Positions 3,209 through 6,789 of a DNA stretch of 64,000 nucleotides are shown piece by piece; within the stretch, counting starts at the first letter, position 1; each line of letters opens with the position of its first letter. The position numbers and the translations under genes are program-made. The DNA comes from Betaproteobacteria bacterium (lineage in GTDB: Bacteria > Pseudomonadota > Gammaproteobacteria > Burkholderiales > SG8-41), in assembly GCA_032128415.1 (NCBI GenBank), contig JAQBGW010000125.1:15871-79870 (forward strand), written 5' to 3'. Below the pieces are notes generated by a model, which saw only the letters and a list, made by a program, of their open reading frames with translations, was not told the DNA's origin and made no database searches.

Positions 3209-4669
3209 CTACGGTCGCGGCGGCGGCGCACGTCGTTGTTGAGACTGCAGGCGCCGCAAATCGGCGAACTCATCCAAAGAAATTCTCCGGTCACCATCAC
3301 GATCAACGCGACCGAAGTCGCGCGCGATGAACGGAAAACGTCCCTCGACCTCGGCCGCCGACAAATAACCGTCGCCATCGCGATCAGCATCGCGGAATTC
3401 TCCACTCACGCGTTCTCGCGCACGATCCAACCCGGAATTTCTTGCATCGGGACGCGGCGGACGTTCACTCTGGTCAGCACCGGGGCCGAATTCGCGCGAC
3501 GGCCGCTGATCCATGGGGGCGCGCCGTGGAGGTTGCGGCGCTGGGGTGAGTTGTGGTGCCGGCGCGGCAATCGCCGCGGGCGGCGGCTCCGGACGACGCT
3601 TATACCAACCCAGCGCAATGACAGCGGCAAAAAGAACCGCTGCACCCCAGCCCACTCGTCGCCAGTCGGATCCATGATCGTTGGTCAAACGCGATGGGCG
3701 TACCGGCGATGTCGGCCGTGACGCCATCGTCGCCGTGGCCGCAGCACGCGTTGCAGGTTCCGGGGCAACAGCCGCAGTTTTGGACAACAGCGCGGCCTGC
3801 GCTTCAAATGCCGCCTTCCATTCCGCAATACTTTGCGGACGCTGCTCCGCTTTCAGCATCATGGCCCACTCGATTGCACGCAACAGCGGCTCGCTGTAAC
3901 GGTTGCGAGCCGCAGCAAGAACCTCCGCCACGGCATCGTTTTGCAGACGGCTCACGGCGTCCGGTGGATTTTTGTCGGTGACTACGCGGAACAGCACACC
4001 ACCCATGGCGTAAATATCAGTCCACGGCCCCTGCTTGCCGTCGCCTGCATATTGTTCAAGCGGTGCATAACCGGGCGTCAGCACGGCGGTTAACGTGCGG
4101 GTAGCGCCGCCGGTATTGCGCGCCGCGCCGAAATCAAGCAGCACCGGTGTGCCATTCGCGCGCATGAATATATTGCTAGGCTTGATGTCGCGATGCAGAA
4201 ATTTTTCGGTATGCACTGCCGCCAGTCCATCGAGCAACGGCAGCACTATGCGTTTGAGCTCCGCCTCATCCGGCTGCGGCGTGCGCTTGAGCAACTGGCT
4301 CAGCGACTCGCCGTCCTCATAATCCATCACCATGTAACCGGTACCGTTCGCCACGAAGTAGCGGTTCACACGCACGATATGCGGATGACTGAAACGCGCC
4401 AACGTCCGCGCTTCGCGGATAAAACTGTCCAGCCCCCACTGGTAATCGTGCTGGTGGTCAGTAGAAACCGGCACCACGCTACCGTCGAGCGCACGCACTG
4501 CCAGATCGCCGGGCAGATATTCCTTGATGGCAACCTGCTTCTCGAGATTGGTGTCCCAGCCGAGATAGGTCATGCCGAAACCACCGACGCCCAGCACTGC
4601 TTTCAATTGATATTCGTTGAGCGTCGAGTTCAGCTCCAGCGCATTGCGATAAACAGGGGACTCGCTCAT
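3209..4669 (-). CDS. Hanks-type Ser/Thr protein kinase with TM segment and C-terminal EF-hand pair
   Basis: GVGGFG, AIKE, HRDIKPSNI, DFG, TPGYAPLE motifs. TM segment VGWGAAVLFAAVIALGWY, Pro-rich linker, EF-hand loops DRDGDGYLSAAE and DRDGDRRISLDE. Confidence 0.9.
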   Translation of the reverse strand: MSESPVYRNALELNSTLNEYQLKAVLGVGGFGMTYLGWDTNLEKQVAIKEYLPGDLAVRALDGSVVPVSTDHQHDYQWGLDSFIREARTLARFSHPHIVRVNRYFVANGTGYMVMDYEDGESLSQLLKRTPQPDEAELKRIVLPLLDGLAAVHTEKFLHRDIKPSNIFMRANGTPVLLDFGAARNTGGATRTLTAVLTPGYAPLEQYAGDGKQGPWTDIYAMGGVLFRVVTDKNPPDAVSRLQNDAVAEVLAAARNRYSEPLLRAIEWAMMLKAEQRPQSIAEWKAAFEAQAALLSKTAAVAPEPATRAAATATMASRPTSPVRPSRLTNDHGSDWRRVGWGAAVLFAAVIALGWYKRRPEPPPAAIAAPAPQLTPAPQPPRRAPMDQRPSREFGPGADQSERPPRPDARNSGLDRARERVSGEFRDADRDGDGYLSAAEVEGRFPFIARDFGRVDRDGDRRISLDEFADLRRLQSQQRRAPPPRP

Positions 4670-4700
4670 GGCTGATGTCGCTCAGGGCACCGCTGACGCT

Positions 4701-5360
4701 TCAGGCGACGGGTTCGCCCGCCAGCGCCTGCTGCATCGCCTGCAGCAACACCTCAGCCTCCTGCGCGCCGGATAAGCCGATGCTGCGGTTGAAAATAAAA
4801 AATGGCACGCCATTAACGCCCGCCTGCCGGGCTTCCTCGTCGGCGCTGCGGATCACGTCGGCGCCCCCTGCACTGTTGAGGTAATTGAGTACGTCTTCAC
4901 GCGGCAAACCGGCCTGCGCTGCATAATCAGCCAGCACGGCGTTGTCGGTGAGGTTCGCGCCTTCAATGAAGTAGGCACGGAACAGCGCCTCGGCTACGGC
5001 GTCCTGTTTACCCAGTTCACCCGCGTGATGCAGCAGGCGATGCGCATTGACCGTGTTCGGCTGCACGGTGATTTTATCGAATGCCATGTCGAGGCCGACG
5101 CTCTTGCCGACCATTGCCACGCGATCGTATTTCGCGTTACCCACGGGTCCGAACTTACGCATGATGTAGTCAGCCCGCGAAATGCCGGAAACCGGCAGAT
5201 CTGGATTCAACTGAAATGGCAGCCAGCGCACGGCCGGCGGTGCTGCATCGGGGTACAGTTTGGCGAACTGTTGCAGCGCGGCTTCAAGCCGGCGCTTGCC
5301 GATGTAGCACCAGGGTCAAACTACGTCAGAAACAATATCGATAGCCAGTTGCTTGCTCAT
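4701..5360 (-). CDS. FrnE/DsbA-family oxidoreductase, probable selenoprotein (UPWC active site, in-frame TGA at 5318-5316)
   Basis: From ATG 5360 (AAGG RBS upstream) it reads MSKQLAIDIVSDVV*PWCYIGKRRLEAAL and continues in frame into the listed ORF (WLPFQLNP...GVNGVPFF...GAQE). The TGA replaces the first Cys of CPWC. Confidence 0.85.
5275..5296 (-). promoter_or_regulatory. Candidate bacterial SECIS hairpin 3' of the in-frame UGA
   Basis: mRNA AGCG-C-CGGCU-[UGA]-AGCCG-CGCU. The apical loop starts 29 nt after the UGA codon and has G at loop position 2. Confidence 0.6.
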
Positions 5361-5380
5361 GGCACAGCCTTTCAGATGAG

Positions 5381-5408
5381 AAAAATAACATAACCTATTG
5401 TTTTTATT
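5381..5408. promoter_or_regulatory. AT-rich 28-bp intergenic motif containing an IHF-consensus-like site, near-identical to 50312-50339
   Basis: AAAAATAACATAACCTATTGTTTTTATT matches the second copy at 27/28 positions. The reverse complement contains AAACAATAGGTTA (IHF consensus WATCAANNNNTTR, 1 mismatch). Confidence 0.5.
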
Positions 5409-5415
5409 GTACTTT

Positions 5416-6789
5416 TTATACGCGTAACGGCGTAAGGTCTACTTTACCCGAAAACATTGCCGGCACGATACGCAGCGCGGCAGCGCATTGCTGCGGCGCC
5501 CATCCGCCGTAGGCGCAGTTACGGCGGAACTTGTCTTCAATTTCGGCACGCGACAGTGGCTCCTGCGCACCACCGCGAATATGCGGTTGGCGTTCTTCAA
5601 ATACCCGCCCGTCTTTCAGCGTCATGCGCACGTGTCCAGTGTAGGCCTTGGGATAAGGATTGTTGGGATCAACCACATATTTCACCTTCGCCGCCAGCGC
5701 GAGGATGCGCGGATCGCGCACGGTCTCCTCGGTGAATGCCGCAAGACCCGCTCCGCCGGTGATGAACGCCACCGCAATATTGAACGGCGCGCTGAATTTG
5801 GCGGCATAGGCATTCGCCGGTTTGTGTTTGGACGGCAGCGGATCCCACAGCCGGTGCACATAACCTTCGGCGGTTTCGCACAGCACATCAGCGACGTCTT
5901 CCGCCGCAAAACCCTGCTTCGCCAGGCGCAGGGCGCAATCCGCATACGGCTGGTTCATGGTGCCTGTGGCATACGGCTTGAAGGTGATGCGCGACAAATA
6001 CCAGTCTTTGCCGAAGTCGCGCGTCAATACATCGTAGTTGCCCTCAGTCGCGTGTGCAAAACCGTTGAACAATCCATGCGTACCTTCAAATACGGTGCGC
6101 GGACCGAGAAAACCCTGCGCGCCCAGACGCGCTGCCTGAATGCCAACATGCGCTGCCCAGCCCGCATGCAGTCGCTTGGTCCACGCACCTTCCGCAAGAT
6201 ATTCAATGATGCCACCGGTCATGCTGCCGGCAATGCCCAGCGCATCCACCGTTTGCTGACGGTTGAGCTGCAACGTGCGCGATACCGCCAGCGTCGCCGC
6301 CATTGCACCGAGTACGCCGGTTGGGTGAAATCCGGATTTGTGGATAGCCTTGGGTATCACCATAGACAGACGGCACAATGTTTCCACGCCGACTACAAAC
6401 CCCGCCAGCATGTCGCGGCCGTCACAACCAAAGCGTTCTGCTGCGGCAAGCACCGCCGGCGCGATAACCGTACTCGAATGTACCGGGCCGCCCTCGAAGG
6501 TGTCATCGAAATCTTCACCGTGGGTTGCAGTGCCGTTGATGGTCGCCGCGATTTCTGCAGAGAAAGACCGGCTATGGCCTATGGCCGTACACGGCCCACC
6601 GGCATCGACACCGGCAATCACCGCGCGCACATAGTCCGTGCCCCGCGCGGCCACGCACAAACCGATCACATCAATAAACAGTTCTTCAGCACGCTTGCGC
6701 ACCGCCACAGGTATAGCCGCAGCGGTCAATGCCGCAGATTGATCTGCAAGCAGCTCAGCGACAGCCACTTCAGGCGCATTCTCAGTCAT
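5416..6789 (-). CDS. MmgE/PrpD family protein
   Basis: HGEDFDD, HSSTVIAPA, GFHPT, KRLHAG and KFS motifs typical of the PrpD fold. Confidence 0.9.
   Translation of the reverse strand: MTENAPEVAVAELLADQSAALTAAAIPVAVRKRAEELFIDVIGLCVAARGTDYVRAVIAGVDAGGPCTAIGHSRSFSAEIAATINGTATHGEDFDDTFEGGPVHSSTVIAPAVLAAAERFGCDGRDMLAGFVVGVETLCRLSMVIPKAIHKSGFHPTGVLGAMAATLAVSRTLQLNRQQTVDALGIAGSMTGGIIEYLAEGAWTKRLHAGWAAHVGIQAARLGAQGFLGPRTVFEGTHGLFNGFAHATEGNYDVLTRDFGKDWYLSRITFKPYATGTMNQPYADCALRLAKQGFAAEDVADVLCETAEGYVHRLWDPLPSKHKPANAYAAKFSAPFNIAVAFITGGAGLAAFTEETVRDPRILALAAKVKYVVDPNNPYPKAYTGHVRMTLKDGRVFEERQPHIRGGAQEPLSRAEIEDKFRRNCAYGGWAPQQCAAALRIVPAMFSGKVDLTPLRV

Follow-up and report, generated by a model that had tools for sequence, protein, structure and literature searches.

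Does the minus-strand frame considered here, which is interrupted by a TGA at the place of a catalytic cysteine, represent a broken oxidoreductase gene, or is the TGA read as selenocysteine (Sec)? The frame lies in a window of 64,000 nucleotides, the whole stretch of DNA that was analysed. In the mechanical list of open reading frames the gene begins at GTG 5231, and the 176-aa product has lost the redox motif. When the frame is read instead from ATG 5360 it contains 219 sense codons, with the TGA at 5318-5316 (codon 15) as its sole interruption, in the context ...IDIVSDVV-TGA-PWCYIGKRRLE.... The N-terminal peptide of the read-through frame is MSKQLAIDIVSDVV-U-PWC and the C-terminus is ...QQALAGEPVA; U15 and C18 form the sole redox pair of the protein, C18 being its only cysteine. 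A Shine-Dalgarno-like sequence precedes the ATG, and most of the orthologues listed have an ATG at the equivalent codon with a GGAG-like site before it, as judged by eye. A sequence-only reading of this DNA had claimed that the ORF track starts at 5231 and so loses a thioredoxin motif, that the frame from ATG 5360, with its ribosome-binding site, carries no further lesion, and that the lone stop falls exactly on the first Cys of a CPWC motif. All three observations were borne out, the last by the alignment of the TGA with Cys in homologues. The features discussed in this work are collected in Table 1.

Table 1. Location of the features described in the text. Positions without a prefix are those of the window; C followed by a number designates a contig of the same genome.
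Feature	Location	Strand	Remarks
Predicted FrnE-type DsbA-like selenoprotein CDS	4701..5360	minus	ATG 5360-5358, stop TGA 4703-4701
TGA codon 15, putatively read as selenocysteine	5316..5318	minus	replaces first Cys of CPWC
Shine-Dalgarno-like AAAGG	5368..5372	minus	7 nt 5' of ATG 5360; judged by eye
Outer stem, 5' arm CAUCGG	5299..5304	minus	begins 11 nt 3' of the UGA
Outer stem, 3' arm CCGAUG	5246..5251	minus	Pro37-Asp38 codons
Helix A	5275..5296	minus	AGCGC 5296-5292 with GCGCU 5279-5275; hairpin of the sequence-only reading
Helix B	5256..5270	minus	window CAGUU-CGCCA-AACUG; most of genus CAGUUC-GCN-GAACUG
Ser/Thr-kinase-like gene, 486 aa	3209-4669	minus	31 nt after the stop of the FrnE-type gene
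selA	C124:38778-39881		same strand as selB and tRNA-Sec
selB (wing domain)	C124:36850-36978		
tRNA-Sec (tca)	C124:34239-34329		
Further gene with in-frame TGA	C74:10862-11266	minus	
Further gene with in-frame TGA	C74:11466-11810	minus	
Further gene with in-frame TGA	C6:11466-11843	plus	
Further gene with in-frame TGA	C21:25291-25656	minus	
Further gene with in-frame TGA	C148:22303-22551	plus	
Further gene with in-frame TGA	C76:55526-55735	plus	
Further gene with in-frame TGA	C149:4-540	minus	
Molybdopterin-domain matches (8)	C142, C170, C160, C32, C4, C132, C125:8739-10406, C136		

The read-through protein matched the Pfam DSBA profile (PF01323) with an E-value of 1.9e-38, residues 7-210 of 219 covering profile positions 2-191 of 191. 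The closest solved relative was FrnE of Deinococcus radiodurans (DR_0659; PDB 5cp1 and 5cnw, with a further structure in 5e59), matched at E 9.7e-39 over residues 2-215. U-P-W-C at residues 15-18 of the window protein aligns with the CPWC of drFrnE and with that of 96 Cys-form homologues. The two proteins are alike in having the active site near the N-terminus. They differ at its first position, where drFrnE has Cys and the window protein would have Sec, and also at the C-terminus, where drFrnE has a CxxxxC tail (residues 239-244) whereas the window protein stops at residue 219 without one. According to the sections of the review PMC8945050 on which we draw, FrnE is a cytoplasmic disulfide reductase/isomerase required for cadmium and diamide tolerance, the CxxxxC tail regenerates the active site of drFrnE, and the FrnE proteins of S. 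roseofulvus and D. maricopensis lack the C-terminal tail, as the window protein does. Because some members go without it, the tail does not appear to be a strict requirement of FrnE proteins. An active site at residue 15 leaves no space for a cleaved leader, and the FrnE-type protein is predicted to be cytoplasmic. The Rcas_1661 family of thioredoxin-like (seleno)lipoproteins (NF041057) was also considered and rejected; the protein scored 20.8 bits against a cut-off of 190, over residues 135-211 alone, and is not a member.

The distribution of the TGA among orthologues was then central to the question. TGA occupies the identical column in 33 distinct orthologues and is replaced by TGC or TGT in 96 distinct Cys forms, and the sequence is conserved on both sides of this column, with IDIVSDVV kept before it and PWC[FY]IGKR after it. 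In a first draw of 40 relatives, the genomes with TGA in this column were 20 from the same genus plus G030, which belongs to another family. These TGA forms share the ATG and the placement of the ribosome-binding site. One further copy is interrupted by the end of its contig, and the more distant homologues read SDVVCPWC. Sampling of the genus itself (40 genomes, including the own genome) gave a match in 36 and TGA in all 36 rows, the position of the TGA being confirmed in 23 of these and one more row being cut at residue 16 by a contig end; completeness is 69-93% in the four genomes that gave no match. From an even sample of the order, comprising 401 genomes with a match in 108 at E <= 1e-40, the active-site TGA was recovered in 15 published genomes belonging to two families and five genera, ten of them from the own family (four genera) and five from one other family. 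This count omits a sixteenth genome, G241, which is unpublished. Rows of the order sample below about 58% identity were Cys forms or had no in-frame stop, save the row of G183 with one TAG. Some apparent TGA forms were discarded: the single TGA of G402, G217, G258 and G083 is the terminal stop of a Cys form, and G244 proved to be a Cys form as well. Among 80 named public loci there were five with TGA, 74 with TGC or TGT and one that was cut; three of the five duplicate genomes that already carry a G handle here, and the remaining two are L049 and L050. The names of the loci place the Sec lineage among uncultured Burkholderiales/Betaproteobacteria.

A maximum-likelihood tree of the 129 distinct proteins, inferred with the active-site residue masked, separated the 33 Sec forms from the 96 Cys forms (SH-aLRT 98), with one change of state between the two sides of the branch. 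Since diversity is far greater on the Cys side, the parsimonious interpretation of this unrooted tree would be a single switch from Cys to Sec among the proteins sampled. The Sec form L050, which is 60% identical to the window protein, is found on a 3.3-kb contig in a bin labelled Hyphomicrobiales. That label is alphaproteobacterial, yet the sequence sits inside an otherwise betaproteobacterial Sec clade, and this could result from mis-binning or from horizontal transfer.

The machinery for selenocysteine, selA, selB, selD and tRNA-Sec(tca), was found in full in the own genome. SelA was recognised with 525 bits and the tRNA-Sec, with anticodon tca, with 75.9 bits; SelB was represented by its wing domain, and selD is divided between contigs C149 and C166 and itself carries a TGA, reading GGGUGCK. 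We noted that selA, selB and the tRNA-Sec gene are grouped on one strand of C124 (34239-39881), the contig numbered beside that of the window. SelA accompanied the TGA form in 17 of the 20 same-genus genomes, the three misses being genomes 74-84% complete. It was also present in G030, the out-of-genus TGA genome, and in only three of 16 out-of-genus genomes overall.

Seven further genes of the own genome have one in-frame TGA each at a canonical redox position. Four belong to the AhpC/TSA family, namely two peroxiredoxins with TxxU and two Prx-like proteins with UxxC; two AhpD/CMD-like genes of the CMD/AhpD family read CxxU, and the last is SelD with GGGUGCK. These genes were found by family searches, and a genome screen based on GC3 and redox motifs missed the FrnE-type gene itself. 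As predicted from these motifs, the genome would hold at least eight candidate Sec genes, all of them for thiol oxidoreductases or SelD, and on this count it is a putatively selenoprotein-rich Burkholderiales genome. FdhA is usually the commonest bacterial selenoprotein. Here, an in-frame stop was absent from all eight molybdopterin-oxidoreductase matches of the own genome and from all of its formate-dehydrogenase-like matches, and the Sec trait seems to persist in the absence of any FdhA with Sec.

We next consider the RNA 3' of the UGA. In the Sec forms the gene-wide minimum of synonymous variability is located just 3' of the TGA. Synonymous entropy among 23 distinct Sec forms was 0.34 in codons 16-40 versus 0.85 in codons 47-215 (rank 5 of 137 blocks). 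No such dip was seen in 78 Cys forms (1.36 in codons 16-40 and 1.33 in codons 16-29, versus 1.33 in the rest), which as a set are more diverged than the Sec forms and therefore make an imperfect control. An outer stem with perfect pairing at the same offset occurs in 32 of the 33 Sec forms versus four of the 96 Cys forms. These counts, like the others given here for the RNA element, are inflated because the Sec forms are one clade and share nucleotides partly through kinship, and P values are overstated for the same reason. In L161 this stem has undergone a compensatory change from C-G to U-A. Within its 3' arm, codon 37 is CCC in 23 of 23 sequences and codon 38 is GAT in 21 of 21, compared with 29% and 40%, respectively, elsewhere in the gene. 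Both are minor codons, and the bases that are fixed are those that the pairing of the outer stem needs.

The interior of the outer stem is more variable, consisting of two hairpins in the genus and of one long irregular hairpin beyond it. Helix A is the GC-rich hairpin in which the sequence-only reading had seen an apical loop 29 nt downstream with G at loop position 2, and all of these features are present: the loop starts 29 nt after the UGA, its second base is G, and in the window an inner GGCU/AGCC stem carries a UGA loop (5286-5284). The lower five base pairs of helix A are retained in 22 of the 23 sequences of the alignment (A1). Conservation does not extend to the inner stem, with pair 34-40 present in five of 22; this stem is limited to the window and a few relatives, and most members of the genus have a 12-nt loop on helix A. 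The wobble base in the loop of helix B varies freely, and in L049 this helix reads CUGCUU-GCC-AAGCAG, with three pairs altered on both sides and different amino acids encoded. At about 50 nt from the UGA, helix B is beyond the published spacing of 16-37 nt. In L037 helices A and B are both broken. A single-sequence fold of the hairpin region gave z = -0.71, with 49 of 200 shuffles folding equally well, and an Rfam scan of positions 4600-5500 with E up to 10 returned chance-level matches to unrelated families and no Rfam family.

Constraints for bacterial SECIS (bSECIS) elements were taken from PMC13188914 (legend to Fig. 2): a loop of 3-9 nt, a stem of 4-16 bp, a spacing of 16-37 nt, G in the first two loop positions, and a minimum free energy <= -7.5 kcal/mol. 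We implemented them without bulges, and this version may be stricter than bSECISearch. The hairpin of the window falls within these limits, with a UGA loop of 3 nt, G at position 2, a spacing of 29 nt and a constrained energy of -15.9 kcal/mol. The same is true of 120 of 300 shuffles and 45 of the 96 Cys forms, and of only ten of the 33 Sec orthologues. Because the pass rate of shuffles and Cys forms is no lower than that of Sec forms, the geometric fit carries no weight. The claim that this hairpin fits the bacterial SECIS model stands as far as the constraints go, but such a fit has no discriminating power, and orthologues do not conserve the apical portion of the hairpin. Like the consensus bSECIS of the E. 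coli fdhF type, the conserved element lies within the coding region straight after the UGA. It differs from the consensus in being larger, with an outer stem that starts at 11 nt and encloses about 45 nt, and in the 12-nt helix A loop of most genus members, which exceeds the limit of 3-9 nt. We read the entire domain closed by the outer stem as the probable functional element, and the SECIS architecture is possibly non-canonical. A functional RNA structure is supported, independently of the geometric fit, by the synonymous constraint, by the outer stem typical of Sec forms, by the fixed minor codons and by the compensatory changes. In such an architecture the domain would be shut by the invariant stem, and its interior would have been remodelled in the genus to a three-way junction with two hairpins.

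These results bear on whether the UGA is read through with an amino acid other than selenocysteine, that is, with Trp or Cys by a near-cognate tRNA, or with Cys carried on tRNA-Sec when selenium is scarce. Insertion of Cys at Sec codons is possible under selenium limitation, the hairpin geometry is non-discriminating as described above, and our analysis consists of sequence data. However, the codon falls exactly on the catalytic Cys, SelA is found together with the TGA form, seven other genes of the own genome have TGA at a canonical Sec position, and the RNA-level constraint after the TGA is specific to the TGA clade. We consider such non-Sec read-through improbable.

A second possibility is that the TGA is a nonsense mutation, leaving a pseudogene or a truncated gene that yields at most the motif-less product of 176 aa from GTG 5231. 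This is how the gene is treated both in the ORF list, with its start at 5231, and in public records. Almost all of the 120 public protein matches listed are 153-200 aa long; the one exception, at 217 aa, is the Cys form P0115. The truncated records that we examined, four in number, begin with MRWLPF... or MGKRKLE..., downstream of the motif. In the NCBI-sourced records P0005, P0011 and P0015, which begin with MGKRKLE..., the start has been placed at the Ile codon that directly follows PWC[FY], and the redox motif is entirely lost. The region before the TGA argues against a nonsense mutation. In codons 7-14 (IDIVSDVV) the amino acids are invariant or nearly so and the third positions vary: codon 8 is GAC in 16 sequences and GAT in seven, codon 14 is GTT in 16 and GTC in seven, and codon 10 is represented by four codons. 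That IDIVSDVV is kept while synonymous variation accumulates points to purifying selection on the frame before the TGA, and the 14 codons upstream of the TGA are conserved as protein. The same TGA is found in 33 distinct orthologues of two families, the upstream codons, which differ by synonymous changes only, are conserved together with the ATG and the ribosome-binding site, the frame has no further lesion, and the Sec machinery is present. The pseudogene explanation is strongly disfavoured, and we hold it to be very improbable.

Contigs from four sequencing runs in two studies span the TGA (X4 and X6, from the second study; X3, from another sample; and X19, an RNA library, about 91% alike), and among the differences listed, a set that leaves aside nine less-supported ones, none falls on 5316-5318. 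An error of sequencing or assembly that conceals a true TGC or TGT, which the fragmented, metagenome-type assembly of the source genome (3.05 Mb in 186 contigs) might invite, can be dismissed as next to impossible against these contigs and against the TGA in independent assemblies of 33 distinct orthologues. The contribution of X19, a metatranscriptomic library, is one 306-nt contig that covers 5043-5342 including the TGA; this places the sequence in an RNA library and does not demonstrate that it is transcribed, and the contig derives from a relative.

We also observed that assemblies tend to end at this stretch. Of the contigs L036, L048 and L050, two start with the final TGA base and the third starts 4 nt before it. 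In run X4 the summed contig depth was about 75 over 5282-5343 versus 10-15 beside it, with many loose ends between 5275 and 5321. Breaks at the stretch of the TGA and the putative SECIS (5275-5343) fit with conservation among co-occurring strains, which branches assembly graphs.

The reading that we prefer is that the FrnE-type gene is a genuine selenoprotein gene with selenocysteine at codon 15, and from the sequence data we judge this to be very probably correct. Our data show the reading frame and its family, the pairing of Sec with Cys forms, the Sec machinery, further candidate Sec-decoded genes and the RNA-level constraint after the UGA. The sequence-only reading had proposed a 219-aa Sec enzyme that standard pipelines would truncate, and the machinery, the pairing and the truncated public relatives agree with this proposal. 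The product would be a cytoplasmic thiol-disulfide oxidoreductase of 219 residues, FrnE-type with a DsbA fold, in which decoding of the UGA by the organism's own SelA/SelB/SelD/tRNA-Sec system would create a U-P-W-C redox centre with a selenenylsulfide replacing the disulfide. In such motifs it is the first Cys that attacks, and a Sec in its position would raise reactivity. We infer that SelB-GTP-Sec-tRNA-Sec would be recruited by mRNA structure in the coding region just 3' of the UGA. The recruiting structure would be the domain of about 60 nt that is closed by the outer stem and, in the genus, contains hairpins A and B (Table 1). By analogy with D. radiodurans FrnE, the protein may reduce or isomerise disulfides in the cytoplasm when the cell is under oxidative or thiol stress. 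Perhaps Sec is inserted via a non-canonical SECIS domain of about 60 nt, not via the one small hairpin of the consensus model, and, at the same time, the lineage is unusual in that the Sec trait is kept for thiol oxidoreductases only; this joint proposal may be right, and we advance it tentatively, with rather more doubt than confidence.

How new is such a protein? We take COG2761 to be the FrnE group. A 'DsbA-like protein' of COG2761 with UxxC, represented by nine sequences, was introduced as a new family of selenoproteins by the Sargasso Sea study (PMC1088965), DsbA-like UxxC selenoproteins were reported from Anaeromyxobacter, Desulfovibrio and Desulfotomaculum genomes (PMC1794560), and a 2026 review includes 'DsbA-like protein form 1, PF01323, UxxC' (PMC13188914), as stated in the parts of these papers on which we draw. 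The earlier statement that UxxC DsbA-like selenoproteins had already been reported is accurate, the type having been catalogued since 2005, and the novelty of the present gene is limited for that reason. Compared by description with the published parts, these proteins share with ours PF01323 and a UxxC motif, with Sec where the first Cys would otherwise stand. Unlike the genomes named there, the source of the window member is an uncultured Burkholderiales lineage. In the portions of the main texts of PMC1088965, PMC1794560 and PMC13188914 on which we draw, no betaproteobacterial member is named, and the supplements may list some.

The neighbourhood of the gene was compared across loci as well. 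The Ser/Thr-kinase-like gene that follows the FrnE-type gene may be co-transcribed with it. Its position had been taken as a hint of a redox link, and this suggestion is not borne out: among 23 Sec-form loci the kinase adjoins the gene in 12, which all belong to one genus, and among 78 Cys-form loci it does so in none; the adjacency is local synteny only. A PrpD/MmgE gene is found upstream in 19 of the 23 Sec loci, again in the same genus only. The kinase protein has a Pro/Ala-rich linker and, near its C-terminus, two acidic DxDxDG-like stretches, DRDGDGYLSAAE and DRDGDRRISLDE, which resemble EF-hand calcium loops.

The FrnE-type Sec gene is ordinary in kind and does not represent a new kind of system. 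Its value lies partly in annotation. Close relatives listed in public collections are stored without the redox motif, and therefore the function is lost from catalogues built on those calls. The locus also provides a clean and densely sampled switch from Cys to Sec, in which the 33 Sec forms make up one clade nested within a background of 96 Cys forms. This set is good material for asking what Sec gives to an enzyme with a DsbA fold, and which RNA features SelB requires outside E. coli.
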